NCBI GenBank assembly: GCA_963664525.1
Contig: OY761535.1
Location: 3,129,242-3,193,241 of the forward strand
Source: Arenicellales bacterium
Lineage (GTDB): Bacteria; Pseudomonadota; Gammaproteobacteria; Arenicellales; JAJDZL01
Direction: 5' to 3'
Length of the DNA stretch: 64,000 nt
The first letter of the stretch is position 1. Each line of letters begins with the position of its first letter. The translations under genes were made by a program, and so were the position numbers. The notes under the pieces are model-generated. The model did not search any database, was not told the origin of the DNA, and worked only from the letters and a program-made list of their open reading frames with translations. This document shows positions 5,741-64,000 of the stretch, piece after piece.

Positions 5741-7027
5741 ATGACCGACCAATATACGATCGCTTTTTTCCCGGAAGGAGCATTTGGACCCGCGCTTAAC
5801 TCCGTTGGTATCGCACAAGCTTGTACGGAACTGGGACACCGTTGTGTCTTTTTGACCGATCCTGGATTTTCCGGTGTATTTTCCGGTTATGGATTTGAAG
5901 AGCGAATCGTTAGGTTGTCGGAAGAAATGCCACCCGAAGAAATGGCTAAATATTGGTCAAATTTTATTGATGGTCATATTCCGAATTTCAACCTGACACC
6001 ATATCAACAGATCGGGAACTACGTCAAGGAGTGTTGGGAAGCCATTGTTGACACTGCCAAGTGGGCAGAAAAGGATCTACCAACTGTGCTTGATGATCTT
6101 AAGCCTGATCTGATCTGTATTGATAACGTCATCCTGTTTCCTGCAGCGAAGCGTTTCGGTGTGCCTTGGATTCGTATCATTTCCTGTAGCGAAAATGAGA
6201 TAGAAGACCCGATGATCCCACCACACTTGTCCGGCTGCGGTGAAAATGATATTGAGTGTTTCGAAGCCTACCGAAACCGATTTAACGAAGTCGTCAAACC
6301 GGTCCATGAAGATTTCAACGAATTTCTAATTTCGTTTGGCGAATCTCCATATCCTTTGGGTCTGTTTTTTGAACCCTCTCCCTATATGAATCTTCTGCTT
6401 TACCCTGAGCCTTTGCAATACAAACGGCAACACTCGCTGGACCCTGATAAATTTCAGTATCTTGAAGGTTGTGTTCGAAGCGACGAGCACTACGAGGTGC
6501 CCGACTTTGAAAGAAACAACGAGGCACCACTGATTTACCTCAGTTTCGGATCACTGGGTTCTGGAGATACCGATTTGCTCAAACGAATGATTGATGTTCT
6601 CGGCAAACTGGAGTATCGAGTACTGGTCAATATCGGCGATTACGGCGATGCCTACGATTCGCTCCCGGACAATGTTCATGTGGCATCCTGGTATCCGCAG
6701 CCATCTGTCATTGAACAGTGTGATGCGGTGATCCATCATGGTGGCAACAACAGTTTTACCGAGTGCTTGTATTTTGGAAAACCTGCCCTGATCATGCCCT
6801 ATGTCTGGGACGGCCACGATAATTCCACGCGCGTGCAAGAAACCGGGCATGGCTTGAAAATGCACCGTTCTAACTGGACGGACGAGCAATTGGCCGAGGC
6901 TATCGAAACCCTGTTAAATGACAAGGATATGCACGATCGGCTCCAATCAACCAGCGCACACATGAAAAAGGCAAACGGACAGCAAAAAGCTGCCCAAATA
7001 ATTGATCAGCTATTGCGTGCGAAATAG
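5741..7027 (+). CDS. UDP-glycosyltransferase, GT1 (MGT/UGT-like) family
   Basis: C-terminal nucleotide-sugar signature: WYPQPSVIEQCDAVIHHGGNNSFTECLYFGKPALIMPYVWDGHDN. The start is set at ATG 5741 (MTDQYTIAFFPEGAFGP); the ORF track begins at TTG 5723. Confidence 0.8.
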   Translation: MTDQYTIAFFPEGAFGPALNSVGIAQACTELGHRCVFLTDPGFSGVFSGYGFEERIVRLSEEMPPEEMAKYWSNFIDGHIPNFNLTPYQQIGNYVKECWEAIVDTAKWAEKDLPTVLDDLKPDLICIDNVILFPAAKRFGVPWIRIISCSENEIEDPMIPPHLSGCGENDIECFEAYRNRFNEVVKPVHEDFNEFLISFGESPYPLGLFFEPSPYMNLLLYPEPLQYKRQHSLDPDKFQYLEGCVRSDEHYEVPDFERNNEAPLIYLSFGSLGSGDTDLLKRMIDVLGKLEYRVLVNIGDYGDAYDSLPDNVHVASWYPQPSVIEQCDAVIHHGGNNSFTECLYFGKPALIMPYVWDGHDNSTRVQETGHGLKMHRSNWTDEQLAEAIETLLNDKDMHDRLQSTSAHMKKANGQQKAAQIIDQLLRAK

Positions 7028-7078
7028 TTTGCCGGTGGCGACAACGGTGTTATTCGACGCCGCTGAAGTCAAATTGAT

Positions 7079-7399
7079 TCAGACTTTGACGTAGACCTGA
7101 TCGTCAACGACTCTCACTGCGTAGGTCTGTAAGTCATCTTCTGCGGGATCTTCAACGACTTTTCCGGTCGTAACACTAAATTCCGCGAGATGTAAGGGGC
7201 AGACGATGCGATCTTCCTCGATATAGCCATCAGAAAGGCAGGCATATTCGTGTGTACAAACATTACTGATTGCATAAATTTCGCTATCCATCATAACCAA
7301 TGCTATTTCTTCAGCACCGATGTCAACCGGGAAAGGGACCCGGTCTTCCAAATCTGATATCGAAGCAACTGCATGATAGTTTTCCAAACTCTCGTTCAT
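7079..7399 (-). CDS. Rieske [2Fe-2S] ferredoxin
   Basis: 106 aa with the CTHE..(17)..CPLH Rieske ligand pattern (CxH...CxxH). Confidence 0.85.
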   Translation of the reverse strand: MNESLENYHAVASISDLEDRVPFPVDIGAEEIALVMMDSEIYAISNVCTHEYACLSDGYIEEDRIVCPLHLAEFSVTTGKVVEDPAEDDLQTYAVRVVDDQVYVKV

Positions 7400-7830
7400 T
7401 TTTTATCGAGGCTCCATTGAATTGGGAACAATTAATGTCGTCGTTTGCAGTGTTTCGCCTCTAAACGGGCGGGTAGCTGCCACAAAGCAAATCATTATAG
7501 TGAGTTGAATTTATCCTGTAGTTTCGAAATCAAAACGCAATTGTTTCTTCATAGGAATAATTCAGTCCTCTTTGCTTTTGATCAGGCAGTGGAAAACTTT
7601 TGCTAAACCCTGTGTCTGAAATTAGACTGATGGGACGCCGTGGTTTTTGGGCTGAGCGATCAGTGGAAAAAAGTACGATATGGAGTCAATGTAAAATGCC
7701 CGCAAAACCAAGCTACAAAATTTCGATCCAAGTTTTTCTTAAATTTCCTGTTTTGCGATAGCATCTGACACAAAACCCTCTGTACCGACTTTATTCAGCT
7801 TGCAAGTATGGCACAACAGCGTTGAACCCG

Positions 7831-9927
7831 ATGATGCGGACGCACAATCCTGAAATAAGACTCGGTGCCGATATTGGCGGTACGTTCACTGACATTGCTC
7901 TGGCCATTGATGGTCAAATTCAGTCAATCAAAGTGCTGACGGATCACAATGCTCTAGAGGCTGCAGTCGTCGACGGAATCTTGAAAGTTACTTCTCTTGC
8001 GGCCATCGCCCCGCAGGAGATTGGCCAAATCATTCACGGTACGACGCTGGCGACCAACGCCTTAATAGAGCGGCGCGGTGCAAAAACTGCTTTGATTACC
8101 ACCGATGGCTTTCGGGATGTAATCGAGATGCGAACCGAAAGCCGATTTGACCAATATGACCTTAATCTTCAACTGAACCCGGCGCTGATTCCTCGCCAGC
8201 ACCGATACACGGTCAAAGGACGAATGGATGCCCACGGTAAAGAGTTGCAAGCACTCGATGAACCTGCAGTTGAGCATCTTGCAACGATAATTTCTACCCA
8301 AGAATTCGAGTCTGTTGCCATTGGATTGATTCATTCCTATGCGAATCCCACCCACGAATTACGGGTTCGTGAAATACTCGCTTCCAGGTTGCCAAATGTA
8401 TCGATATCGATCAGCGCAGAAATATCGCCACAAATGCGGGAATACCCGCGATTTTGCACAGTCTGTGCGAATGCCTACATACGTCCGAAAATTGAGCGCT
8501 ATCTGACGCAATTGCAAACGAAGCTTAATGCTCAAGGTGTAACGTGCCCTGTATACATGATTCATTCAGCGGGTGGCTTGATATCAGTTGACACCGCGAA
8601 AGATTTTCCAGTGCGTTTGGTTGAATCAGGCCCAGCGGGAGGCGCCATGTTTGCAGCAGACATGGCGGCGAAATTTGGACTGGATAAGGTCGTTTCATTT
8701 GACATGGGCGGAACGACCGCGAAGATATGCCTAATCGAAGACAGCCAGCCACGCACCAGTCGGGAATTTGAGGTGGCACGCAGCCAACGGTTTTGCAAAG
8801 GCTCTGGAATGCCTTTGTCAATCCCGGTGATTGATATGATCGAGATCGGTGCAGGTGGTGGTTCAATTGCTTGGATCGACTCGATGAAACGAATACAGAT
8901 CGGACCTCAGTCTGCCGGGTCTGACCCGGGTCCTGCATGCTACCAGCGAGGTGGACAGCAACCAACCGTGACCGATGCTGATCTTATTCTGGGCAAAATT
9001 GATCCGGACCGCTTCGCCGAAGGAACCATACAGTTGTCCGATTCAGCTGCAACTTTGGCAATCAGTGAAAGTTTGGGCAAAGCGCTTTCGTCTGACGTGA
9101 CGACAGCCGCTTTTGGTATTTGTGAAGTCGTGGATGAAAACATGGCCAATGCCGCGCGTGTTCATGCGGTAGAAAATGGCAGTGATATCTCAGACCACGT
9201 TATGATTGCTTTTGGCGGTGCCGCCCCGCTGCACGCGGCCAGAATCTGCGAAAAACTCAATATTGACAGTTGCCTGATACCGCGTGGAGCGGGCGTCGGT
9301 TCTGCAATTGGATTTCTAATTGCTCCATTCAGTTATGAAGCTGTCGAGTCCCGGGTAATGAGTCTGAATAAGTTTCAGGTCGAAACGGTGAACCAGAGGT
9401 TGGCGGATTTGATTGAAAAAGCTGAAAATTTCGTTCGCGCCGGGACTCAGGCAAAGGTAAGCCTTGAGGTTACCGCATTTATGCGATACCAGGGACAGGG
9501 TTGGGAAATTCCGGTTCCAATCACAATACACAAATTGACCTTGGATGATGTGCCAAGGCTCAAAGCACATTTCGAACAGTGTTATGAAGAATTCTTTGGT
9601 CGGAAAATCGACATCCTGGACGATCTGGATATTGAAGTTGTTTCCTGGTCTGTCAAGGTTTCAGAAGAAAAAAGTAAACCGTCGTCGGTGACAATGACTA
9701 AAGTCGGAAACAAGATGCATCCATTGGAATCTCGAACGGTATTTGATCCAGCGTCAGGGCAAATGAAAAAAAATGGTATCGTAGACCGAATGGATTTGGT
9801 GGTTGGCGAACGGATCATCGGTCCGGCGATTATCGTGGAGCAACAGACATCGACGGTTGTCACTTCAAGGTTCGACGCGGTTTTACAATCCGACGGATCA
9901 ATCTTGCTGATGAGAAAATCAGGATAA
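7831..9927 (+). CDS. Hydantoinase/oxoprolinase family protein, A (HyuA-like) subunit
   Basis: N-terminal ATPase fold motif RLGADIGGTFTDIAL, a second phosphate motif FDMGGTTAKICLIE, and about 700 aa in length. Its stop abuts the B-subunit start. The ORF opens at TTG 7822. Confidence 0.88.
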   Translation: MMRTHNPEIRLGADIGGTFTDIALAIDGQIQSIKVLTDHNALEAAVVDGILKVTSLAAIAPQEIGQIIHGTTLATNALIERRGAKTALITTDGFRDVIEMRTESRFDQYDLNLQLNPALIPRQHRYTVKGRMDAHGKELQALDEPAVEHLATIISTQEFESVAIGLIHSYANPTHELRVREILASRLPNVSISISAEISPQMREYPRFCTVCANAYIRPKIERYLTQLQTKLNAQGVTCPVYMIHSAGGLISVDTAKDFPVRLVESGPAGGAMFAADMAAKFGLDKVVSFDMGGTTAKICLIEDSQPRTSREFEVARSQRFCKGSGMPLSIPVIDMIEIGAGGGSIAWIDSMKRIQIGPQSAGSDPGPACYQRGGQQPTVTDADLILGKIDPDRFAEGTIQLSDSAATLAISESLGKALSSDVTTAAFGICEVVDENMANAARVHAVENGSDISDHVMIAFGGAAPLHAARICEKLNIDSCLIPRGAGVGSAIGFLIAPFSYEAVESRVMSLNKFQVETVNQRLADLIEKAENFVRAGTQAKVSLEVTAFMRYQGQGWEIPVPITIHKLTLDDVPRLKAHFEQCYEEFFGRKIDILDDLDIEVVSWSVKVSEEKSKPSSVTMTKVGNKMHPLESRTVFDPASGQMKKNGIVDRMDLVVGERIIGPAIIVEQQTSTVVTSRFDAVLQSDGSILLMRKSG

Positions 9928-25000: not shown

Positions 25001-27016
25001 CGAGGGATTTGCGCTGTCAAAAAATCTAGACGAGGCAATGGTTTAGAGAAGGGTCGAAAAAACTTTCCCCCAACAAACGGCTGATTAGAGGGCTTTGAGT
25101 CGATTCAGCATTGATTTTGGCGAATTTCACCCCAACGTCAATTACCCGCCTGCTGGTGCAACGAGGTTTCCCCAAAACCTCTACTATACAGTAATAATGT
25201 CTTTATTAACATATACATAGAGTTGACATTGGCGCCACCATGGTGTATCATTCATGAGCATAAACAACCACATCCATGACCCAATGGAAATCAAACACCA
25301 TGGCGACAAAAATAGAAACCAGCCTTTTTTCCTGGAATAATCCGCAACAACTGCCAAGACTGCAAACACTGGCCCGTGTGCTGGAGATTTTACCGTATCA
25401 AGCGTTGGTTGAGGCCCTGTGTGAAAAACGCGGCCGCGGCCGAAACGATTTCCCGGTCGAAGCGATGTTTCGTCTGGTGATTGCCGGTGTGGTGCTGCAA
25501 TATCCTTCTGCGGCAGCCTTGCTGCGCAACCTGGAAACCAACCTGAGTCTGGCCCAGATCTGTGGCTTCAACCCGTTGCCAAGACAGCAACAGTCCAAAA
25601 CGGTGGTGCATGAGTCGTCGCAAGGACCGGTGACGTTCGAGACCATTGACTACCCACAGCGCATCACGTTGCCGGATGACTGGGCCTTCAGTCGTTTCCT
25701 GACCAGTATGCTGGAGCTGTTGGCCCAGCGAGATTATCTCAAAGAGATGTTTGAGCAACTGCGCGAACAATTGCGGGTGGTGGTGCCCGATTTTGGATGC
25801 TACCTGGCCTACGACGGAAAAGCAATCCAGAGTCATTCCACCGGTCGGGTGAAGCACAAAAGCGGTTACAGTTCAGACCCGGATGCCACCTGGGGCAAAC
25901 ATGAGAGCAAAGGGGTTGACAAAAAGGGTCGTGCCTGGAGCAAAGTCAAAGAATGGTTTGGATTTCGCTTGCACGCCATTGTGGATTCAGTGAACGAGTT
26001 GCCGGTGGATTATCGTGTGACGACGGCGAGCGATGGTGAGGCGGTGGTGCTGTCACAGATGCTCAAAGAGATGGACGAAACCCATCCGCAGATTCTCGAA
26101 CGCACAGAGCAGTTAAGTGCCGATCGCGGGTTGGATGTCAAGGAGTTGTACCGGGCGCTGTTCGACGATTACCAGATCGAGCCGGTAATTGATAACCGTG
26201 ATCTTTGGCGTCAGGAAAAAGACGAGGGCAACTATGATCCACAAAAGCCGATCTTGAGAATGCTCAACGGTGGCAAGCGCATTGATAACATTGTCTATGC
26301 GGAAGATGGGACGCTCATGTGCCGGTGTCCGCACACTGACACGGAGCGCGAGATGTATTTTATGGGCTATGAGAAAGATCGGGGGACCTTAAAGTATCGC
26401 TGTCCTGCCAAAGCCGGTGGTTATCAGTGTGCTGGTACGCAACAGTGTCTGCGATACGGCCGCTCGAAGGCGCACCGGTATGGTCGCACGGTGCGAATCA
26501 AACTGGATCAGGCCAATCGCAGGATATTTACGCCGACACCGCGCAACACGTACAAATGGAAGCGCAGTTATGCGCGGCGCACGGCGGCTGAGCGGTTTTT
26601 CTCTCGCATCGCTCAGGGCTACAATTTTGATCACCACTATGTACGTGGACTGGTCAAGATGCAGGCCAAAGCGTCGCTGGCCATGGTGGTTGGACTGGCG
26701 ATGGCGATTTTGCACATTCAAGCCGGTCAGGCGAACAACATGCGCTCACTGATCCGACCGATTGCGTTGCTTGATACTGGCTAAGGGTCGCGTTGTATTG
26801 TGAATTGACTTATCGTAGCGTGGCTGCGAGGGCTGGGCGCGTCTTGATACCAGTAAAATTGACACAAATATGAACAAACCGCATTTCAGACAAAATATTC
26901 GACGCGATTGGCTTGGTCGACGGTCTGTGGAAGATGATTATTGCCCCGTCAGTGCCCTGGCGGGCCAACGAGTCGGCGTGGCCGGACGCGAAAATGGCTA
27001 CAACGCAAATCCCTCG
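25001..27016 (+). mobile_element. Insertion sequence (2,016 bp), IS4/IS5-superfamily (IS1182-like) with one DDE transposase gene
   Basis: IRL at 25001-25017, CGAGGGATTTGCGCTGT, matches the reverse complement of 27000-27016 at 16/17 positions. There is a 3-bp direct repeat, TCT, at 24998-25000 and 27017-27019. By eye the interior is GC-richer than the flanks. Confidence 0.88.
25276..26784 (+). CDS. DDE transposase (InsH-N/DUF772-type N-terminus, IS4/IS5 superfamily)
   Basis: 502 aa. The N-terminus RGRNDFPVEAMFRLVIAGVVLQ resembles the transposase DUF772 region. A Cys-rich insert (CRCPHTD..YRCPAKAGGYQCAGTQQC) is present. The C-terminal RRTAAERFFSRIAQGYNFDHHYVRGL motif is typical of IS5/IS1182-type enzymes. 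Confidence 0.85.
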   Translation: MTQWKSNTMATKIETSLFSWNNPQQLPRLQTLARVLEILPYQALVEALCEKRGRGRNDFPVEAMFRLVIAGVVLQYPSAAALLRNLETNLSLAQICGFNPLPRQQQSKTVVHESSQGPVTFETIDYPQRITLPDDWAFSRFLTSMLELLAQRDYLKEMFEQLREQLRVVVPDFGCYLAYDGKAIQSHSTGRVKHKSGYSSDPDATWGKHESKGVDKKGRAWSKVKEWFGFRLHAIVDSVNELPVDYRVTTASDGEAVVLSQMLKEMDETHPQILERTEQLSADRGLDVKELYRALFDDYQIEPVIDNRDLWRQEKDEGNYDPQKPILRMLNGGKRIDNIVYAEDGTLMCRCPHTDTEREMYFMGYEKDRGTLKYRCPAKAGGYQCAGTQQCLRYGRSKAHRYGRTVRIKLDQANRRIFTPTPRNTYKWKRSYARRTAAERFFSRIAQGYNFDHHYVRGLVKMQAKASLAMVVGLAMAILHIQAGQANNMRSLIRPIALLDTG

Positions 27017-49480: not shown

Positions 49481-50866
49481 ATGAAAAAAATTGTTGCTTT
49501 TGCATTGGCTTTTGCATTGCCGATGTTTGCTATGGCACCTGTTCAAGCCGATGAAACTTGCATGTCGCCTTATATTGCGAAAATTACAGGGCAAGAAGAT
49601 TATGTCTATGTTTGGACACTCGGTGTAGAAGGTATCGGAGACGAGCAAGATAAACTCGTAACGATTGGCGCCAATCCAGCGGCCGACAACTATGGTAAAG
49701 TTGTCCATGTTCTTTCAGTAGGCGGTCGCAACGAAGCGCATCACTCGGGTCTGAGTGATGACCGAAGGTTTCTTTGGGCTGGTGGACTGGATACGAACAA
49801 AATCTTTATTTTCGATATCCACAGCGATCCTGCCGCCCCCACAATATCCAAAGTGATCACTGATTTTGCAGATGCAACGGGTGGTCTCGTTGGACCTCAC
49901 ACATTTTATGCCTTACCGGGTCGAATGATGGTTACCGCGCTGTCCAACAATATTGATGGCGGCGGACGAACAGGAATGGCCGAATACAACAATGAAGGCG
50001 AGTACATTTCGACACACTGGATTCCGACTGACGAGGACCTGCGCGGTGCAACGAAGTCCGGTCAGTTCGCTGATGGATATGGTTATGACGTTCGCGTGAA
50101 AGCAGACAGCAACATTATGCTGACCTCCTCATTCACGGGTTGGTCAAATTACATGATGGATTTTGGTGCCATGCTCAGTTCTCCAGAAGCCATGCAGCGT
50201 TTTGGCAATACCATGGTCGTCTGGGACATGCATGCGCGCACACCGCTCAAAGTACTCGACGTGCCAGGCGTGCCGCTGGAAATTCGCTGTGCCTGGGACC
50301 CGGCGAATAAATACTGTTTCACCAGTACCGCTCTGACTTCGCAAATTTGGCTGATCTATGAAGACGATTCTGGCGAGTGGCAGGCCAAAGCTGTTGCAGA
50401 CATTGGCAATCCCGCTGACGTTCCACTGCCGGTTGATATTTCCATTACCGCAGACGACAAAGGTCTTTGGGTAGATACGTTCCTGGAAGGAAAAGCGCGT
50501 TATTTTGACATTTCTGACCCGCATGCACCCAAACAGGTTTACGAGGAAGTGATTGGTAGTCAGATCAACATGGTCTCACAAAGTTGGGATGGCGAGCGCG
50601 TGTACTTTTCAAGTTCTCTGCTAGGAAACTGGGACAAGACGGGCGATGCTGATGAGCAGTACGTCAAACTTTACCATTGGGATGGCGAGAAACTCGAACA
50701 TCAATGGTCCATTGATTTTTACGAACATGGTCTTGGGCGTGCGCATCAGATGCGTTTTGGCGCTTATGCCATGTACGGCAAGCTCAATCCATATATCGAA
50801 GGCGTTCAATCAGTGGAAAAACAAGGCACCGATGAACCCGCACTTCTCGTTCAGTCGGACGGTTAA
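49481..50866 (+). CDS. mtoX: Selenium-binding protein (SBP56) family; putative methanethiol oxidase
   Basis: Signal peptide (..MFAMAPVQA), then DYVYVWTLG..DKLVTIGANPAADNYGKVVHVLSVGGRNEAHHSG..IFIFDIHSDPAAP, which is typical of SBP56. SCO1 and MauG-like genes follow. Confidence 0.82.
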   Translation: MKKIVAFALAFALPMFAMAPVQADETCMSPYIAKITGQEDYVYVWTLGVEGIGDEQDKLVTIGANPAADNYGKVVHVLSVGGRNEAHHSGLSDDRRFLWAGGLDTNKIFIFDIHSDPAAPTISKVITDFADATGGLVGPHTFYALPGRMMVTALSNNIDGGGRTGMAEYNNEGEYISTHWIPTDEDLRGATKSGQFADGYGYDVRVKADSNIMLTSSFTGWSNYMMDFGAMLSSPEAMQRFGNTMVVWDMHARTPLKVLDVPGVPLEIRCAWDPANKYCFTSTALTSQIWLIYEDDSGEWQAKAVADIGNPADVPLPVDISITADDKGLWVDTFLEGKARYFDISDPHAPKQVYEEVIGSQINMVSQSWDGERVYFSSSLLGNWDKTGDADEQYVKLYHWDGEKLEHQWSIDFYEHGLGRAHQMRFGAYAMYGKLNPYIEGVQSVEKQGTDEPALLVQSDG

Positions 50867-50884
50867 TTTGCTCTGACTTCCAAA

Positions 50885-51634
50885 GTGGATTCTGAACTGG
50901 CGCAGCCAAAGGTGAAAAACGTAGTAAGTTCATTTTTTGCCCGGCTTTGTCCTACGTTCGTGGCTGTGGTGGCTGCAGTGTGCTTTTGCGCTGTAGTTTC
51001 GGCCAACGCGTCGGCAAAAAGCCAGTTCAGGGCACCGGGTTGGGGTGAACTCTCATACGAACCACCAGCGCCCGGAACATACGAGTTGCCCACAATCAAG
51101 CTGGCTGTTGACGGAGAGGTGTTGACCAGCGACAACTCTCCGTCTCGCCTTTTTGATTTAATGTCGGATCGATTCGTACTGTTGAGTTTCATTTTCACAC
51201 GTTGTACCGACGGCAATGGCTGTCCACTGGCCAACGCAGTGTTGCATAAAGTACAGGCTCGCCTGAACAAGCGTTCAGATCTGGCCGATAAAGTCTCGTT
51301 GCTGACCATTTCCTTTGATCCAGAGTTTGATGTTCCCGAAAGGCTCGCTACGCTTAAGGATATCTATAGTTCTGGACCCGTCAATTGGAACTTCTTAACG
51401 ACGAAGGATCAGCAATCCTTGCAGCCGCTTCTTGATGGTTATGGACAATTTCCAGTACGCTTCGAACATGAAGGTGCCCATGGTGAGGGGGTTGTCGAGT
51501 ACATTCATTTGCTGCGTGTCTACCTCATTGACCTCAACAAACAGATTCGAAATATTTACAGCGTTGCTTTTTTACATCCGGATATTTTGATGAATGATCT
51601 TGAGACTTTAATTTTGGAGTTGCCTGCAAAGTAG
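50885..51634 (+). CDS. SCO1/SenC-family copper chaperone-like protein
   Basis: Thioredoxin-fold SCO pattern FVLLSFIFTRCTDGNGCP...ISFDPEFD...H(L)LRVYLID. The Cys spacing is Cx5CP rather than the usual Cx3CP. GTG start with an N-terminal signal/anchor. Confidence 0.75.
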   Translation: MDSELAQPKVKNVVSSFFARLCPTFVAVVAAVCFCAVVSANASAKSQFRAPGWGELSYEPPAPGTYELPTIKLAVDGEVLTSDNSPSRLFDLMSDRFVLLSFIFTRCTDGNGCPLANAVLHKVQARLNKRSDLADKVSLLTISFDPEFDVPERLATLKDIYSSGPVNWNFLTTKDQQSLQPLLDGYGQFPVRFEHEGAHGEGVVEYIHLLRVYLIDLNKQIRNIYSVAFLHPDILMNDLETLILELPAK

Positions 51635-51643
51635 CAGTTGTCT

Positions 51644-53011
51644 ATGTGGCACCTGTCACGAGTCTTCAATGCTGTTGCCATGTTCGGCTGGCTGGCCGTC
51701 CTGGTTTTTGGAACGCCTGCATTCGGGCAAACCAGTGGTGCTCTCGGAGCGGGCGAGAGTTTTGATGTCAGCCAGGCATACGGTCCTGGAGATGTCAAGG
51801 AAGGCTATGAGAGCGCAGACTACCAGACACAGTCGCGAAGTTTGCTTAGCCGTAGAGGCACCAAGCAAGATTTAATTCAATTTGTTGAAAACCCGCCAAT
51901 GGGATTACCGCCGGTATCCACCCCTGCCGACAACCCCATAACCCGCGCCAAGATTGATCTTGGCCGCCAGTTGTTCTTTGATCGACGTCTGTCGATCAAT
52001 AACACGGTGTCGTGCGCAAGCTGTCATATACCGGAACAGGGCTTTACGAATAACGAAATCAGTACAGCAGTCGGTGTTGAAGGTCGATTGGTGATCCGCA
52101 ATGCCCCCACGCTCTACAACGTGGCTTTTTTGCAGCATATTTTCCTGGATGGGCGAGAAACCAGTCTTGAAAACCAGGTCTGGCAGCCCATCACCGCACG
52201 CAACGAAATGGCCGCACCTTCAATTGGATATGTGATCAACAAGATCAAACGCATCCGCGATTATGATGGCCTGTTTGAAGCTGCGTTTGACGGCCGCTCA
52301 GCAGACATCGCCACGATTGGATATGCACTGGCCAGCTACCAGCGAACCTTGCTGTCTGCAGACTCGCCATTTGATCAATGGTATTTTGGGAAAAATGATC
52401 ACGCAATCAGCGAGTCAGCCAAACGCGGTTTTAAGGTTTTCGTTGGTAAGGGACAATGTGCGATTTGCCACCGAATCAATCAGGGACATGCCCTTTTCCT
52501 TGACCATCAGTTTCATAACACCGGCATTGGGTACGCAGTTTCTTCCGGGAAGACGCCTTCTCAAATCAGGAAAAAAACACGTGTCCAGCTTGCCCCCGGG
52601 GTATTTGTTGACGTGCCCAATCAAGTTATTCAATCGGTGTCAAGAATTGACAGTTTTAACGACCTTGGCTTGTATCGAATTACGGAAAACCCGGCCGACC
52701 GGTGGAAGTTTCGCACGCCGAGCCTACGCAATGTTGCCCTGACAGCGCCTTATATGCACAACGGCCAACTCGCAAAGCTGCGTGATGTGATTGAGTTCTA
52801 CGATCAAGGCGGTGTGCCCAATGAACTGTTGTCGCCGTTTATTCGACCTCTTGGGCTGACGGAGAAGGAGAAGTTAGATCTGCAGGAATTTCTAGAATCA
52901 TTGACCGGAGACAATGTGCCGGACATCGTCGCTGATTCATTTGCCGCACAGATCGGAGAACTCGGTGTTGAGGACCCCAATTGGGCCCATCAGAATACAT
53001 TGGGTTATTGA
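51644..53011 (+). CDS. Di-haem cytochrome c peroxidase / MauG-family protein
   Basis: Two haem c sites (CASCH, CAICH), a signal peptide (..VFGTPAFGQ), and FRTPSLRNVALTAPYMHNG, typical of CCP/MauG. Confidence 0.88.
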   Translation: MWHLSRVFNAVAMFGWLAVLVFGTPAFGQTSGALGAGESFDVSQAYGPGDVKEGYESADYQTQSRSLLSRRGTKQDLIQFVENPPMGLPPVSTPADNPITRAKIDLGRQLFFDRRLSINNTVSCASCHIPEQGFTNNEISTAVGVEGRLVIRNAPTLYNVAFLQHIFLDGRETSLENQVWQPITARNEMAAPSIGYVINKIKRIRDYDGLFEAAFDGRSADIATIGYALASYQRTLLSADSPFDQWYFGKNDHAISESAKRGFKVFVGKGQCAICHRINQGHALFLDHQFHNTGIGYAVSSGKTPSQIRKKTRVQLAPGVFVDVPNQVIQSVSRIDSFNDLGLYRITENPADRWKFRTPSLRNVALTAPYMHNGQLAKLRDVIEFYDQGGVPNELLSPFIRPLGLTEKEKLDLQEFLESLTGDNVPDIVADSFAAQIGELGVEDPNWAHQNTLGY

Positions 53012-56471: not shown

Positions 56472-57464
56472 CTAACCATTTTGGGTTTTTGCCGTGATGT
56501 CGGCACCGTGTTTGATCAGTAGTATTGTGATTTCGACTTGATCATACCAGGCAGCCAAGTGCAGCGGGGTAGAGTCATTCTCGCTTATTGCGTTCACATC
56601 AGCACCGTATTGGATCAACACTTCAGCAGAATCGATTGCGTTGGTCAGTGCGGCCCAATGCAGTGGGGTGGCCTTGTATCGCTCTGTCGCACTGATGTCA
56701 GCGCCGCGTTTGATTAGCAACTGTACCATTGCTGTGCTGTCGTTTGCCACCGCCCAGTGCAATGATGTTTCCCCGTTGTCGGACTTGGCGTCAATGTCGG
56801 CTCCACTATCAATCAAGAGCGTTGCGACCTGCAGTGCGTCGGAGTATGCCGCCAGGTGTAAGGGCGTTAGTCTTGCTGAAGTTCTGGTATGAATGTCAGC
56901 GCCTTTGGCAATGGCCAGTTCTGCAGCAGCTTTCGAATGACTCAAAGCCGCCCAGTGCAGCGCAGTGTAGTTGGCTCTCGTATAGGTCTCACTATTGTCC
57001 GGTAAAGGCAAAGCCAGTTGTTCCTTTGTCTCAAGTAGCTTTACCATCAACTGATCGGAAAACTGTGCCCCGTCATTCTTGGTCCTGACATCAATATCCA
57101 AGCCTTGATCCAATAAATGCCCTAGCAATTCCGGGAGGTTTAAAACTGCTGCCCAGTGCAAATCGGTCCAACCGTTTTCATCGCCAGCATTGGCATCAGG
57201 ACAGCGTCCGATCAACTGAACAAACGTCGCAAGCGTTGCTTGCGTCATTCCGGCATTTTCAATCGAGTCTGGACACAGATTCGAGGAATTTGCGGTATCT
57301 GCCTGGGTGAGCGAACCTGTGAAAAATGCGAAAAGGAAAATCGCCCAGTGCAGGCAATGGAATTTTGCGTTTGACTGTTGGATTTCAGGTACCGCCATAG
57401 AAGCCTTTAGCGATTGCGTTTTAGCTAACTGCAAATGTGTAATTCTTATCAAGCTTTTGAGCAT
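56472..57464 (-). CDS. Ankyrin-repeat protein with a probable signal peptide
   Basis: At least six ANK repeats (TALHWAA..GADI.., TPLHLAA..GADIDA.., TSLHWAV.., TPLHWAA.., TPLHLAA..). A hydrophobic leader (HWAIFLFAFFTGSLTQA) follows M at 57398. The track ORF start (57620) overlaps ntrC and was trimmed to ATG 57464; 57398 is an alternative. Confidence 0.75.
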   Translation of the reverse strand: MLKSLIRITHLQLAKTQSLKASMAVPEIQQSNAKFHCLHWAIFLFAFFTGSLTQADTANSSNLCPDSIENAGMTQATLATFVQLIGRCPDANAGDENGWTDLHWAAVLNLPELLGHLLDQGLDIDVRTKNDGAQFSDQLMVKLLETKEQLALPLPDNSETYTRANYTALHWAALSHSKAAAELAIAKGADIHTRTSARLTPLHLAAYSDALQVATLLIDSGADIDAKSDNGETSLHWAVANDSTAMVQLLIKRGADISATERYKATPLHWAALTNAIDSAEVLIQYGADVNAISENDSTPLHLAAWYDQVEITILLIKHGADITAKTQNG

Positions 57465-57486
57465 TTTGTCGGCACAGGCCACGTAC

Positions 57487-58881
57487 TTAAAGCTCTTTGC
57501 TTTTGCGTGCAATCGTATTTCGTCCCCAACCCAGAATTTGAGCGGCTTTTTGTTTCGACCCGCTGGTATGTTCAAGTGTTGCTCGCAGCAGCGCTCGCTC
57601 AGTAATTTCTCTAAGCTCACCGTTATTGAGATCGTTGGACTGATTCAGCAGTTGTCTGATTGCCCCTTGTAACGTAGTTTCAGGATCAAGCGCTGTGTCA
57701 TCGGTTTTTTCATAGTGACCAAATACTTGTGGTAAATCGTCGAGCAAAACTGAATTCGAGGGAGTCATGGCAGTAACGGAACGGCAAAAGTTTTCAATTT
57801 CTCGCACATTGCCTGGCCAAGCATAAGAATCAAGGTATTGTGCGACTTGTTGAGACAGAGTCTTTGGACTGGTATCCAATTGTGTGGCCGCCTGTTTCAA
57901 AAAGTGGTCGATCAGCAAGGAAATATCTTCGCGTCGCGAACGAATTGGCATCAGCGCGATTCGAACGACATTCAAGCGATGATAAAGGTCAACTCGAAAC
58001 TTGTTCGCTTTGACAAGCTGTTCCAGGTCTTGATTGGTGGCGGCAATGATGCGAACATCGACTGTAATTTCGATGGTACCACCCACCCGGTAGAATTTCC
58101 CTTCAGACATGACCCGAAGCAATCGGCTTTGCAAATCATGTGGCATGTCTCCGATCTCGTCGAGAAACAAAGTGCCTTTATCTGCTTGTTCGAATCGACC
58201 GATCCGTCGTTGATTGGCACCGGTAAATGCTCCTTTTTCGTGTCCAAAAAGTTCAGATTCAAGCAGATCCGCGGGTATGGCGGCCGCGTTAATCGCGACG
58301 AAAATTCGGTCGCGACGAACGCTGTTTTCGTAAAGCGCCCGTGCGACCAGTTCTTTGCCGGTACCCGACTCGCCGGTAACAAGCACGTTAAGATCAGAGT
58401 TTGCCAGTCGCCCAATGGCGCGAAATAAGTCCTGCATCGCCGTTGAACGACCAATCATACGACTTGTTTGAATATTGTCCTGTGGCGTAATTTGGGGATA
58501 GTCGTTTGTCTCAGCGAGAACTCTTTGAACCAGGCAGATCGCATCATCGATGTCAAATGGTTTTGCAAGATGTTCTCTCGCACCGCGCTGGAAGGACTCC
58601 ACTGTTGTATCGAGATCAGAATACGCAGTCATCACGACCACTGGAAGATTTGGATTATCCTTGTGCACCACTTCAAGAAAATCGAATCCGCTTTGGCCAT
58701 TCATACGAATATCGGTGATAATCACCGCTGGCTTTTCATGCATGAATAATTCAAGCGCGTCTTCAGCACTGGCAAATTGTCGGGTATTGAGCCCCTCGTG
58801 CTTGAGTGCCTGCGCCAGCACCCAGCGTATCGACTCATCGTCGTCGACAACCCAGACAATCGCACCGTTTTGCTTGCTCAT
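57487..58881 (-). CDS. ntrC: Nitrogen regulation protein NtrC (sigma-54-dependent response regulator)
   Basis: Receiver (VWVVDDD..DIRM), AAA+ ([36 protein letters not shown]) and a Fis-type HTH ([15 protein letters not shown]). Confidence 0.93.
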
Positions 58882-60191: not shown

Positions 60192-61640
60192 TTACCTGCT
60201 GTAGTACATTTCAAATTCAAGGGGGTGAGTTACGAGTCGCATCGCCTTGACATCGTCATCTAATAGATCAATGTAAGCATCAATGGCGTTGTCGGTGAAC
60301 ACTCCGCCTTCCTTGAGAAAGTCCCGGTCGTTGTCCAGTGCAATCAATGCCTGATTCAGTGATGGTGCAACGTGTGGAATCAACTTTTCTTCTGCCGCAG
60401 TCAGTTCATACAAGTCTCCCTCAGCCGGTAGGCCAGGGTCGATTTGATTTCTGATACCATCCAGTCCTGCCATCATCATCGCTGAGAAAGCCAGGTATGG
60501 ATTTGCAGTGGGGTCCGGAAATCTGATCTCGACCCGCCTGGCTGCATCCGGGGTGAACGGTATTCGACATGACGCCGAGCGGTTATACGCCGAATATTGC
60601 AGCAATACCGGTGCTTCGTAACCTGGTACCAAGCGTTTATAGCTGTTGGTTGTCGGGTTGGTAAAAGCATTGAGCGCCTTGGCATGTTTGAAAATTCCAC
60701 CAATGTACCAGAGTGCTTCCTGGCTTAGACCGCAGTGACCATCACCGGCAAACAGGGACTTTCCGTCCTTGACCAGCGACTGGTGAACGTGCATTCCCGA
60801 ACCGTTATCTCCAACTAGGGGTTTTGGCATAAACGTTGCAGTATAGCCGTGTGCATTGGCCACATTTTTGACGCAATATTTGTAAAGCTGCGTGCGATCT
60901 GCCATTTTGACCAGCGTGTTATAGCGAATGCCAATCTCGGCCTGTCCGGCGGTTCCGACTTCGTGGTGGTGCTTTTCGACATCAACGCCCATGTCAAGCA
61001 TCGCCTGGCACATGGCAGATCGAACATCCGTAAAAGAATCAACGGGCGGAACTGGAAAATACCCGCCTTTGACGCGCGGTCGATGTCCCAAATTGGGACC
61101 GGCGTCATAATCCTGGTTGCTGTTCCATGCACCTTCATAAGAGTTGATTTCATAGAACACGCTTTCCATGTGGGTGCTCCACCGCACTCCGTCAAAAATA
61201 AAAAATTCTGGTTCCGGACCAAAGTACGCGGTGTCGGCAATTCCTGAGGTCGTAAGGTAGTCCTCGGCTTTCTGTCCGATGCTGCGCGGGTCTTTTTCAT
61301 ACCATTCGTCTGCGCCCGGATTGTAGATGCTGCAACGAATCGTAACCGTTGTTTCCTGCAAAAATGGATCAATTACGCAGGCACTGGGGTCCAGAATCAT
61401 GCACATGTCTGATTCATTAATGGGCTGCCAACCCTGAATGGACGAACCGTCAAACATGACCGGTTCATCAAACATTTCTTCCGAAAAGTTGGAAATCGGC
61501 CAACTTAGATGCTGAACAGTGCCAAGAGTATCCGTAAATCGAAAACTCACCCACTTAGCATCACAATCCTTGATCAAGCGCATCGCGCTCTCAACGGCCT
61601 TGGGATCTCGAATCGAATTTATAGCCTTTTCGACTGACAT
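60192..61640 (-). CDS. glnA: Glutamine synthetase, type I
   Basis: [26 protein letters not shown] and [16 protein letters not shown], plus the adenylylation-loop Tyr context ([11 protein letters not shown]). Confidence 0.95.
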
Positions 61641-61684
61641 TGAAATTTACCTCCAAAAATAAAATATGTACTACACCTGATATA

Positions 61685-61700
61685 CAGCAATTATCATGCC
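61685..61700 (-). promoter_or_regulatory. Sigma-54 (-24/-12) promoter of glnA
   Basis: The minus strand reads TGGCAT-GATAA-TTGCT, which has exact consensus spacing (TGGCAC-N5-TTGCW). It lies about 45 nt upstream of the glnA ATG, which has a GGAGG RBS. Confidence 0.8.
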
Positions 61701-61739
61701 AACGAAATCAGTCGAGTTTAGAGTTCTAAGCGAATAAAA

Positions 61740-61787
61740 CGCACAATTATAGTGCGTATATTCGCTAATATGCACCATAATGGTGCA
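61740..61787. promoter_or_regulatory. Two NtrC enhancer-type palindromes upstream of the glnA sigma-54 promoter
   Basis: TGCACCATAATGGTGCA (61771-61787) is a perfect match to TGCACC-N5-GGTGCA. CGCACAATTATAGTGCG (61740-61756) is a weaker second dyad. They lie 40-90 nt upstream of the -24 element. Confidence 0.8.
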
Positions 61788-62669
61788 TTGAATCGCTTCA
61801 GTTGAATCTAATGTATTGACGTTAGGCGTCAAGGCCGAAGTCTGAAAAAATGCTTACCGAAAAAATCACTCGAATATTGCGTTTTGCGACATTTGAAGTT
61901 AGAAAAAACGCGAAATTCTGTCCCATTTGAAACCACCTTTGCGCGGCAGCGAACTTTACCGTGCAACTGAACAAACCCGAACAGGTTCGCTCGCTGGTGC
62001 TATCTTTGAAAACCTGATTTCGCCTCTTTGCAGGGGCTTTCATTCCAAATCATCTGAATGTTGCAGTTGCGACTATTTCCGCGCGGGTGATTTTCAAAAG
62101 AAAATTGCAGTGAAGCGGTTGTTTCGGGGGTGAGACGCTCAATAGGCTCAATTCACCAATAAATTCACGAGATTCCGACATGATTGTTTTTATTGTGATA
62201 AATGTTCGACATTCGATTTTTCGAAACATGGCTCCAACGCAAAAGCCTGAAGAATGAAGTTGTCGTGGTCTCTGGTCGAGGAGATCTGGAAATATTTTTT
62301 ATTTTCAATAAATACTCCTTCACAGTGTTCAACGAATGTATATAACATTGCAAATTATTTGCGGACAAGGCAATGTATTGCTTAATCACATAGAAAGCTC
62401 GAATTCTGAGGATGTTTTGTGGCGGTTGGTTTCGAAAGTCAAAGGAGTGAACTAATTCGGCGCAATCGATTAGACAGAGTTGGTGTTTGTTACAGGGAGA
62501 GAACAAGATGCTTATTGAAAATGGAATATCCTTTTTGCAGGTTAGGATCAAGCGTAGTATCGGAGCAATTTTATCGGTCTTAATAAAGGCAAAGATGACG
62601 GGTTGTGGAGGTGATGAAGTAATTCAATCATCGTTCGCCGGATCGCCCCACCTGCGTCCGGGCGCCGGC

Positions 62670-63998
62670 ATGAGCGTTACCGCATGGCTGAGGAGCGGTT
62701 TCGCCGCGGCGCTGCTGCTGGCCGCGCTCCCGTCCGGGGCTGCCGCGCAGACGATCTCGGCGAACACGATCTACGAGGGCCAGACCCGGACCTTCACCGT
62801 CACAGGCATCCCCAACAGTTGGACCGGCGGGGTGGATGCGATATTGGGGGGCAACCCTGCAACTGCCGAACGTCTGGCTGCACAAACTTGCGTGGCGGGC
62901 CTTACAGATAACTACAACACCGCCAACTTCGACATCTGTGTAAACCAGATCGTCTGGGACAGTGTCAACAGAGTAGCAAGGATTCAGGTGACCGCTGCCA
63001 AGGACACGCATGCGGAGGGGGATGATCCCTTCCGGTTGGTCGTTCAGGATCCGACCGACAGGACCAACAGGACTAGCTCTTTCCCCATCACCATCACCGA
63101 GCATCCGGCCACCTGGGAGGAACGCCGCACCCATGATGATGGCAAGGGCGACGGATTCTATTGCGAAGGACCGATGCCGACGGTCGATGATGTCTTCCCC
63201 GGCAGGTCCTATTCGGACCTCACTGATGCCGAAAAGGTGGAATACGTCAAGGCGACGGCGGTGGGGCAGGTCTTCCCGCCGCCGAACGGCCTGGTGGTGG
63301 ACTGGGACCGTAGCGGCGGCTACAACGCCGACGACACCGCGAAAATCAAGATCCGCACGTCGGACAACAAGAAACTCTGCGGCGGCGTGCTCCTCGATAT
63401 CCTGGTCAGCTCGCTGCACATATCGGAAGACGGGCCGATTCCCGAAGGCGGGCCGATGCCGATCCCCCTGACCCACAGGTTCGTGACCATGGCGAAGGGC
63501 GAATCGGAGAAGGAGATTTCGTTCAGGCTGACCTCGGAGAAAGGGCCGGCCAGGGTGTACTTCAGCGTCCTGGGCGTCAAAGGCGGCCCGACGCCGGTGA
63601 CGGCTGGAACGGAAGGAAAAACGCTGCATCCCGCCACCAAGGTGAAGAGGAACGTCAACTGCTCCAGCCAGTGCCGGAGCGCGTTCTTCCAGTTTAGATC
63701 GACATGGGTGCGGGAGGATTTAACGCCGACGGTTAACCTGACGGTGCGTGTCGATCCGGCACCAACCTCGAACTTGACGCTCGAATACACCTTGTCCGGA
63801 ACGGCGGATCGGGGCGCCGACTACACTATTTCCGGCGTGACCAGCAACAGCGGCACCGTCACGGTGCCCGCGAACGCCACCAGCGCGACCATTCCGGTGA
63901 TGATCCTGGACGACAACATCGAAGACAGTGGCGAGACAATCGTGGTCAGTCTGGAGACGAGCGGCGGTTATCGGGCGATCGCGCCCGAGAGCGTGACG
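62670..63998 (+). CDS. Secreted Calx-beta-repeat protein (partial; continues past the right edge)
   Basis: Absent from the ORF track because there is no stop in the window. Hand translation from ATG 62670 gives MSVTAWLRSGFAAALLLAALPSGAAAQ (signal peptide)...LEYTLSGTADRGADYTISGVTSNSGTVTVPANATSATIPVMILDDNIEDSGETIVVSLE, a Calx-beta motif. The frame stays open for 443 codons in about 62% GC DNA. Confidence 0.75.
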   Translation, partial: MSVTAWLRSGFAAALLLAALPSGAAAQTISANTIYEGQTRTFTVTGIPNSWTGGVDAILGGNPATAERLAAQTCVAGLTDNYNTANFDICVNQIVWDSVNRVARIQVTAAKDTHAEGDDPFRLVVQDPTDRTNRTSSFPITITEHPATWEERRTHDDGKGDGFYCEGPMPTVDDVFPGRSYSDLTDAEKVEYVKATAVGQVFPPPNGLVVDWDRSGGYNADDTAKIKIRTSDNKKLCGGVLLDILVSSLHISEDGPIPEGGPMPIPLTHRFVTMAKGESEKEISFRLTSEKGPARVYFSVLGVKGGPTPVTAGTEGKTLHPATKVKRNVNCSSQCRSAFFQFRSTWVREDLTPTVNLTVRVDPAPTSNLTLEYTLSGTADRGADYTISGVTSNSGTVTVPANATSATIPVMILDDNIEDSGETIVVSLETSGGYRAIAPESVT

Positions 63999-64000
63999 CT

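Follow-up and report, generated by a model that had tools for sequence, protein, structure and literature searches.

The 64,000-nt stretch of DNA analysed here (the window; contig OY761535.1 of an Arenicellales bacterium, assembly GCA_963664525.1) most likely ends in a horizontally acquired gene. Its last 1.37 kb appear to be the 5′ third of an autotransporter-type adhesin gene of ~5 kb, which would have arrived recently and lost its promoter and a family-specific octanucleotide repeat tract at the point of recombination. The original prediction, made from the sequence letters, had seen an abrupt compositional break at ~62.63 kb and, beyond it, a gene for a secreted Calx-beta repeat protein; it proposed either the edge of a recently acquired island, perhaps a large adhesin or RTX-like locus, or a chimeric join in the assembly.

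The abrupt switch in composition is real. Guanine-cytosine (GC) content was 0.478 over positions 1-62630 and 0.624 over positions 62631-64000; 1370-nt windows across the background averaged 0.478 (sd 0.022) and never exceeded 0.549, which places the tail at z = 6.7, and the three counts per 60-nt line behind the original observation (17/60, 37/60 and 30/60) were all exact. The tetranucleotide distance to the profile of the window was likewise outlying, at 0.575 for the tail versus 0.255±0.028 (maximum 0.338) for background windows (z = 11.5). A two-segment maximum-likelihood fit located the change point at 62631-62635 with a log-likelihood gain of 55 nats, and a three-segment fit returned GC values of 0.497 (to 61610), 0.395 (61611-62635, non-coding) and 0.625 (tail). 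Because the low-GC line cited in the original prediction sits in intergenic DNA, the fair contrast is that between the tail (~0.62) and coding DNA (0.486), and even this gave z = 6.2. The AT-rich spacer preceding the break had a GC of 0.408 versus 0.442 pooled over 25 intergenic gaps of the window and is thus host-like for non-coding DNA; the contrast that strikes the eye is therefore partly one of intergenic versus coding sequence.

Codon usage pointed the same way. In the open reading frame (ORF) of the tail, GC at third codon positions (GC3) was 0.795 versus 0.491±0.039 in 45 window genes (z = 7.8), with normal GC at first positions and a high value at second positions (z 3.1). Back-translation of its 443 residues with host codon usage yielded a GC of 0.519±0.008 (maximum 0.545) versus 0.619 observed, so that amino-acid content explains only 0.519 of the 0.619 and the shift is mainly (three quarters) synonymous. 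The sole other compositional outlier among the window genes (25276-26784, plus strand; GC 0.539, GC3 0.626) encodes a DDE transposase (PF01609, DUF772) and is therefore another imported element.

The break also lies where the gene order of the host lineage is lost. The last host gene with conserved synteny is glnA, for a type I glutamine synthetase (60192-61640, minus strand; TIGR00653, E 7e-188), whose product was 94, 93, 92 and 89% identical to those of Arenicellales metagenome-assembled genomes (MAGs), and the order ahcY-metK-(ankyrin)-ntrC-ntrB-glnA is conserved in relatives. Arenicellales have been reported from sponges, and the recipient is an Arenicellales bacterium of 48% GC that is probably associated with a sponge. 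An alignment of the window with four relatives delimited a conserved glnA control region (61638-61789, minus strand) with a Shine-Dalgarno sequence, a promoter and two palindromes; the motif TGGCATGATAATTGCT at 61686-61701 and the palindromes GCACCATTATGGTGCA and CGCACTATAATTGTGCG at 61740-61756 and 61771-61786 were invariant or nearly so. Judged by known consensus sequences, TGGCATGATAATTGCT looks like a sigma-54-type promoter and the palindromes look like NtrC enhancer sites. DNA homology to the relatives ends at 61704-61788, and synteny stops at ~61790.

Directly upstream of glnA, six relatives (L001, L003, L004, L006, L151 and L152) carry a TusA-family gene and a gene for a 347-aa PP-loop/NFACT-R protein. 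Neither the PP-loop gene nor tusA was found in the whole window. In their place lies the AT-rich, non-coding and non-syntenic spacer (61790-62635, GC 0.41), which contained no PP-loop remnant, no Rfam family, no convincing ORF and no repeats of note, and which resembled no fetched locus, no other part of the window and no plasmid. Shuffled sequence gave promoter and terminator matches just as often as the spacer did. A homologue of the GC-rich ORF was found in none of 80 glnA loci. The DNA upstream of the relatives' PP-loop gene is variable and holds a TnpB gene in L001 (6704-7927), an insertion sequence (IS) transposase in L006 (5208-7049; GC 0.60 in a 0.48 genome) and a toxin-antitoxin pair in L004, where 6199-7677 carry an Xre-type antitoxin together with a retropepsin-like gene.

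At the break itself, comparison with relatives revealed a remnant of the octanucleotide tract of the gene family, 1.5 units long (CGCCGGATCGCC, 62636-62647, plus strand), which coincides with the GC change point. It is followed by the family 5′ leader (62648-62669, plus strand), in which the leader alignment shows CCACCTGCGTC (62648-62658) to be common to relatives and the remainder to run up to the conserved start. A 24-nt exact match, beginning at the break, joins window positions 62635-62658 to positions 9691-9714 of a relative's locus (L082). In this locus and in that of the closest relative (L081), the consensus promoter elements cacTTGACAag and, after 17-18 nt, CATAAT or TACAAT are followed at once by a perfect (CCGGATCG)n tract, 14.0 units long in L081 and 24.4 in L082. 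All nine loci with visible upstream DNA (L081 and L082 included) had this promoter, its end lying 2-5 nt ahead of the tract; in relatives 5-20 nt separate the tract from the start codon, and the protein is conserved in its first residues.

A metagenome scan for four CCGGATCG units returned 64 loci, 14 of them with perfect tracts of at least 8 units. Nine of the 14 (8-15 units each) came from LXNI01, which is labelled a Sarcotragus foetidus sponge metagenome (preprint), and the family gene lay directly 3′ and in the same orientation at all five LXNI01 loci with visible downstream DNA. The other five long-tract loci (L088, L098, L100, L117 and L137; 8-12 units) were from non-sponge metagenomes and had neither the family promoter nor the gene, so the CCGGATCG tract alone is not diagnostic. 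Some of the non-sponge tracts were embedded in imperfect CCGGGCCG or CCGGACCG arrays, and at L138 (minus strand), downstream of 486-573, (CCGGATCG)x11 passes directly into a variant tract, (CCGGAACG)x4.

The window copy departs from this arrangement. The CCGGATCG motif occurs once in the 64 kb and no long perfect tract was found there, the family consensus promoter is absent, and the leader alignment shows the copy to be short of ~150 nt of family leader or N-terminal extension. A degenerate version of the family promoter (TTGTGG-17 nt-AATCAT, 62603-62631, MAFFT-aligned) was too weak to claim. The DNA upstream of the tract is GC-rich in relatives, whereas in the window it has a GC of 0.37-0.41; the break is therefore a junction of family DNA with unrelated AT-rich DNA and not a dip at a promoter. 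With only 1.5 units and no consensus promoter, the window copy cannot switch by means of the tract.

In the relatives the tract is not translated and, since it begins 2-5 nt after the -10 box, probably belongs entirely to the 5′ untranslated region (5′UTR); by analogy with known systems, its role there is most likely graded expression control. Two other roles were rejected. A regulatory hairpin in the repeat RNA would fold worse than shuffled sequence (z +2.6), and phase variation of the frameshift type, although the tract can be read through in all three frames, would lack a start codon between promoter and tract. In L082 (9700-10000), the post-tract ATG at 9722 misses the frame of the signal-peptide ORF by 1 nt, this ORF has no canonical start of its own, and the gene call leaves the signal peptide out. 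An ‘off’ state, a pseudogene or a sequencing error could each lie behind this.

The gene downstream of the junction is itself intact as far as the window reaches. From ATG 62670 its frame runs for 443 codons up to the window end and continues past it, and the protein is 100% identical to the recorded product P0004 (1692 aa); as the window covers P0004 residues 1-497, the end of the gene is predicted at ~67586, ~3.6 kb past the window. The first segment (62670-62747, plus strand) comprises a start codon conserved in the family and a predicted 26-residue Sec signal peptide, MSVTAWLRSGFAAALLLAALPSGAAA followed by Q, in which inspection of the translation finds R8 in the charged n-region, the hydrophobic core FAAALLLAAL and cleavage motif AAA before Q; the peptide is conserved in P0005, the product of L081. 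The original description of ATG 62670 as followed by a classic signal peptide and preceded by no Shine-Dalgarno sequence was thus correct from the translation and the upstream DNA, and its Arg-rich antisense shadow frames were also seen (antisense ORF 62628-63629, 14.7% Arg).

Behind the signal peptide, 313 residues (62748-63686, plus strand) form a family-specific N-terminal passenger region. Pfam gave no match in the first 339 residues of the window ORF and NCBIfam none for this ORF, and an exhaustive phmmer search with residues 27-339 (E≤1e-3) retrieved only 17 representatives, P0004 included; identities over the region were 100% for P0004, 61% for P0005, 36% for P0006 and 38% for P0007. 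A word-indexed protein search returned only three Calx-beta matches for the whole 443-aa fragment and nothing for the N-terminal region alone; no match was found when the fragment was scanned against genome and metagenome contigs, and no relative when the N-terminal region was searched in plasmid records. Modelled by AlphaFold2 from its single sequence, the window fragment gave nothing informative, with a predicted local distance difference test (pLDDT) score of 44.

A Calx-beta domain follows (63687-64000, plus strand), cut by the window end. PF03160 matched residues 340-430 of the window ORF at 34.6 bits (gathering cut-off 27; E 2e-8) and P0004 residues 394-504 at 50.2 bits (E 3e-13). The product is therefore a secreted Calx-beta-containing protein, as first described, but the term ‘repeat’ says too much for the part in the window, where Pfam finds one Calx-beta domain after the 313 family-specific residues. 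Further on, P0004 has additional beta-sandwich modules, which give a weak LapA-like match. Its residues 512-933 (~64.0-65.3 kb) are a near-perfect tandem duplication of a 211-aa unit composed of a module that Pfam does not match (LPAAHPV...AEQYFAG) and a beta-sandwich repeat. The RTX-like locus once envisaged was not borne out, since P0004 is free of GG.G.D motifs over its whole length and its Pfam matches include no RTX family; the large adhesin fits better, with a full product of 1692 aa and a C-terminal beta-barrel whose homologues pass PF03797.

The assignment of this barrel was reached through its relatives. The C-terminal region has at least 600 homologues at 41-58% identity, three of which NCBI names autotransporter outer-membrane beta-barrel proteins. 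PF03797 (Autotransporter) matched 10 of 53 aligned barrel homologues (44-59% identical to P0004), and the six matching homologues that were checked all passed the 26-bit gathering cut-off (28-49 bits), with matches spanning only the first 200-225 residues of the ~400-residue barrel region. A profile of the barrel alignment found nothing among PDB sequences. An alignment-based AlphaFold2 model of the barrel (pLDDT 80.7; predicted template modelling (TM) score, pTM, 0.77) consisted of a long helix followed by ~18 strands, and Foldseek retrieved outer-membrane barrels with it, including the beta-domains of BrkA and EspP, at modest TM-scores. Homology and model together suggest that P0004 is a surface protein of type V, autotransporter-like but with a barrel of atypically large size, its C-terminal domain being an autotransporter-type barrel that standard profiles would miss. 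The passenger most likely acts as an adhesin that depends on calcium, or else in interaction with the host; a role in host adhesion is plausible.

Relatives of the gene reside in GC-rich DNA full of mobile elements. The closest, P0005, shares 67% amino-acid and 79.8% DNA identity over the part in the window and comes from a 74-kb contig that also carries IS1595, IS21, Tn3-type and Mu-type elements, serine recombinases and a group II intron; the gene for P0006 (L082) adjoins an F-type tra operon and IS66, and that for P0007 stands in a 1.3-Mb contig beside a HigB/HigA-type toxin-antitoxin pair. These three genes have a GC of 0.63-0.70 and a GC3 of 0.80-0.90, matching their flanks (0.62-0.73). 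The family was found in MAGs labelled Alpha-, Gamma- and Deltaproteobacteria, Spirochaetaceae and Gemmatimonadota. A second GC-discordant copy occupies the contig end in a gammaproteobacterial MAG (L148, 1-2170; GCA_026708925.1, JAPOTX010000039.1), with a GC of 0.71 in the gene versus 0.56 in the flank, the rest of the contig bearing genes for CitMHS, SCO1, PSD and a NADH dehydrogenase subunit. AT-ward drift of the window copy relative to L081 was not significant (117 versus 96 differing sites, p 0.17); no amelioration is seen, and the composition remains donor-like. The donor pool is most likely the family as carried on replicons of 63-73% GC rich in IS elements, recombinases and conjugation genes. 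That the DNA was recently acquired, as had been proposed, is supported by its donor-like composition, the lack of AT drift, the mobile high-GC relatives and the synteny lost with respect to at least six genomes.

From these comparisons we infer the direction and recency of the transfer, the secretion route, the adhesin role and the state of expression. A family gene would have landed directly upstream of the glnA control region and taken the position of tusA and the PP-loop gene, in a neighbourhood that further upstream of glnA varies among relatives and is endowed with mobile-element genes. Its GC-rich DNA starts just where the sigma-70 promoter of the relatives ends and the (CCGGATCG)n tract starts, and any expression would depend on signals in the AT-rich spacer, possibly including ATG 62508 and the Shine-Dalgarno sequence before it. 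The Sec signal peptide would take the protein across the inner membrane, whereupon the helix-preceded C-terminal beta-barrel would insert in the outer membrane and export or display a passenger made of the family-specific N-terminal region, Calx-beta and other beta-sandwich modules and the duplicated 211-aa unit.

ATG 62508 leads to a variant of this account, not exclusive of it, in which the foreign gene was fused to a new host-derived 5′ end and starts there with a 54-residue N-terminal extension; we regard it as possible though rather doubtful. The original prediction had missed that the frame of the ORF is open back to 62451, for which the chance in spacer-like sequence is ~0.015. The in-frame 5′ extension (62495-62669, plus strand), supported by this open frame and by the database gene call, opens with the Shine-Dalgarno-like GGGAGAG (62495-62501) at a distance of 6 nt from ATG 62508, while nothing of the sort precedes ATG 62670, and ATG 62508 is the start in the public gene call, P0004 beginning with MLIENG.... 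The extension would replace an Arg-rich stretch of ~50 residues ahead of the family signal-peptide core, which is conceivable because family members do have ~50 residues before the hydrophobic core (an extension of 57 residues in L081). On the other side, the family conserves both ATG 62670 and the peptide that follows, MSVTAWLR resembling MSVFVWLRR (L140), MSLSGAWRR (L081) and MTLSGAWRR (L123). The 54 extension codons are AT-rich and without homologue, no family member has a counterpart of them, family start codons likewise lack a Shine-Dalgarno sequence, and gene callers prefer the longest ORF. The public start is probably 54 codons too early.

A chimeric assembly, in which the Arenicellales chromosome was wrongly joined at ~62.63 kb to a co-resident high-GC organism or plasmid, is improbable. 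It would account for the extreme sharpness of the switch, the closeness of the foreign part to similar metagenome assemblies (79.8% DNA identity to L081) and a junction with neither mobility gene nor repeat; the species has no independent assembly to confirm the join, and relatives have at this position a low-complexity repeat of the type that assemblers can mishandle. Yet the records of P0004, GlnA, NtrB, NtrC, AhcY and the methanethiol oxidase each point to one chromosome-scale contig of 3,458,003 bp, and related records carry contig names that appear long-read in style. No repeat is common to the two sides, the AT-rich side being devoid of CCGGATCG, and the junction falls at a biologically defined point. 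The copy is also structurally unique (1.5 units, a leader shortened by ~150 nt and a frame that stays open into the spacer) rather than a typical locus pasted on, and a second, independent GC-discordant copy exists in the other gammaproteobacterial MAG. A native, long-resident gene made odd by repetitive Gly/Ala/Thr/Val/Asp-rich sequence or local mutation bias is more improbable still, for although amino-acid content slightly raises the expected GC (0.519 versus 0.486) and second-position GC is high, most of the shift is synonymous with GC3 far outside the host range, no glnA locus has a homologue, relatives hold other genes at this position and the family lives in high-GC contexts.

Several points weigh against a recently imported autotransporter gene, which we nonetheless favour. 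Only one edge is visible, and no integrase, IS element, tRNA or direct repeat was found at it. The junction is known from one assembly, which alone represents the species: NtrB, NtrC and AhcY are each single-member clusters at 90% identity, and a search for a second assembly that could confirm the join gave none closer than 92-94% in GlnA identity. The gene has no evident promoter and may therefore be silent. Finally, the C-terminal 511 aa of P0004 matched nothing in Pfam, NCBIfam or PDB sequences, with no match to PF03797 or TIGR01414 even at E 10, and the modelled barrel seems larger than the classical 12 strands; since P0004 is profile-negative here and its barrel looks oversized, the secretion route is proposed by way of the homologues.

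As an event, the import is of an ordinary kind, foreign adhesin DNA at a synteny break, with an unusually informative junction; it offers a clear and well-delimited case in which a host-associated gammaproteobacterium has probably taken up a gene in recent times. The window feature itself is modest, and the repeat architecture at the level of the family is the part most worth pursuing. A limited literature search found no report of a CCGGATCG tract or of this gene family. In sponge-symbiotic Actinobacteriota the enriched eukaryote-like domains include Calx-beta, and symbiont-enriched surface-protein domains comprise Calx-beta, cadherin, fn3 and ankyrin (PMC11706023); Calx-beta domains also make up the aggregation factors of demosponges (PMC5400394). 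A more ambitious and tentative proposal, which we would not count as likely, joins these strands. The window gene would be a ‘disarmed’ member, locked or re-wired by loss of tract and promoter, of an undescribed family of enlarged-barrel Calx-beta autotransporters that moves between phyla in sponge microbiomes on plasmids, integrative conjugative elements or IS-rich DNA and is normally tuned by slippage of (CCGGATCG)n between the -10 box and the start. Because demosponge aggregation factors contain Calx-beta domains, the passengers could mimic or bind the sponge adhesion and self-recognition system. If the tract does tune expression, contingency-type regulation would extend beyond pathogens to animal symbionts, and the proteins so regulated would share a domain type with the aggregation factor of the host.

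Two neighbouring regions of the window deserve mention. Between ntrC and metK lies a gene for an ankyrin-repeat protein (56472-57620, minus strand), which is present at the same position in L151, with DNA that cannot be aligned in L001 and L004; its ORF overlaps ntrC by 134 nt, so that the true start is probably further in. At 49481-53011 (plus strand), a methanethiol oxidase gene (NF052453, E 2e-222) stands ahead of a 249-aa ORF and a gene for a MbnH/MauG-like di-haem enzyme, a possible sulfur- or copper-linked operon.

Set beside known systems, the tail shows two features of genomic islands, atypical composition and absence at the same position in six relatives; the window has no tRNA, the junction has no repeat, and the far end is outside the window. 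The ‘edge of an acquired island’ thus survives as the 5′ edge of foreign DNA, and the word ‘island’ is unproven, with one gene and one boundary visible. The genomic islands of sponge symbionts offer a likeness in the abrupt foreign composition, the surface-protein cargo, the variable neighbourhood, the nearby ankyrin gene and the relatives from a sponge metagenome, but no integrase, tRNA or flanking repeat was seen with the window gene.

As to the protein, P0004 itself goes unmatched by PF03797, NCBIfam and PDB sequences, its modelled barrel has ~18 strands and not 12, and its passenger is predicted to consist of Calx-beta and other beta-sandwich modules and not of a beta-helix, in all of which it differs from type Va autotransporters such as BrkA, EspP and AIDA-I. 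It nevertheless has the same order of parts as these (Sec signal peptide, large modular passenger, helix, C-terminal barrel), and the barrel ends in an aromatic residue (...FEAVARW). PF03797 recognises homologues at 45-53% identity, the Foldseek matches include the barrels of BrkA and EspP, and signal peptides in the P0004 family are long, as in many autotransporters.

For the tract, the parallels are adhesin promoters tuned by repeats. One is offered by the AGAT repeats of the uspA2 5′UTR of Moraxella. Another is provided by hmw1A/hmw2A of Haemophilus influenzae, which have 7-bp repeats upstream in non-typeable strains and the octanucleotide GCATCATC in 12-15 copies upstream in biogroup aegyptius (PMC3309571). 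The unit CCGGATCG and the organisms are different, and no two of the fetched family loci are the same locus; like hmw1A/hmw2A, however, the relatives of the window gene have a perfect non-triplet tract of 8-24 units between the promoter and the start of what appears to be a large type V adhesin gene, and the tract has been kept across diverged paralogues of the family.

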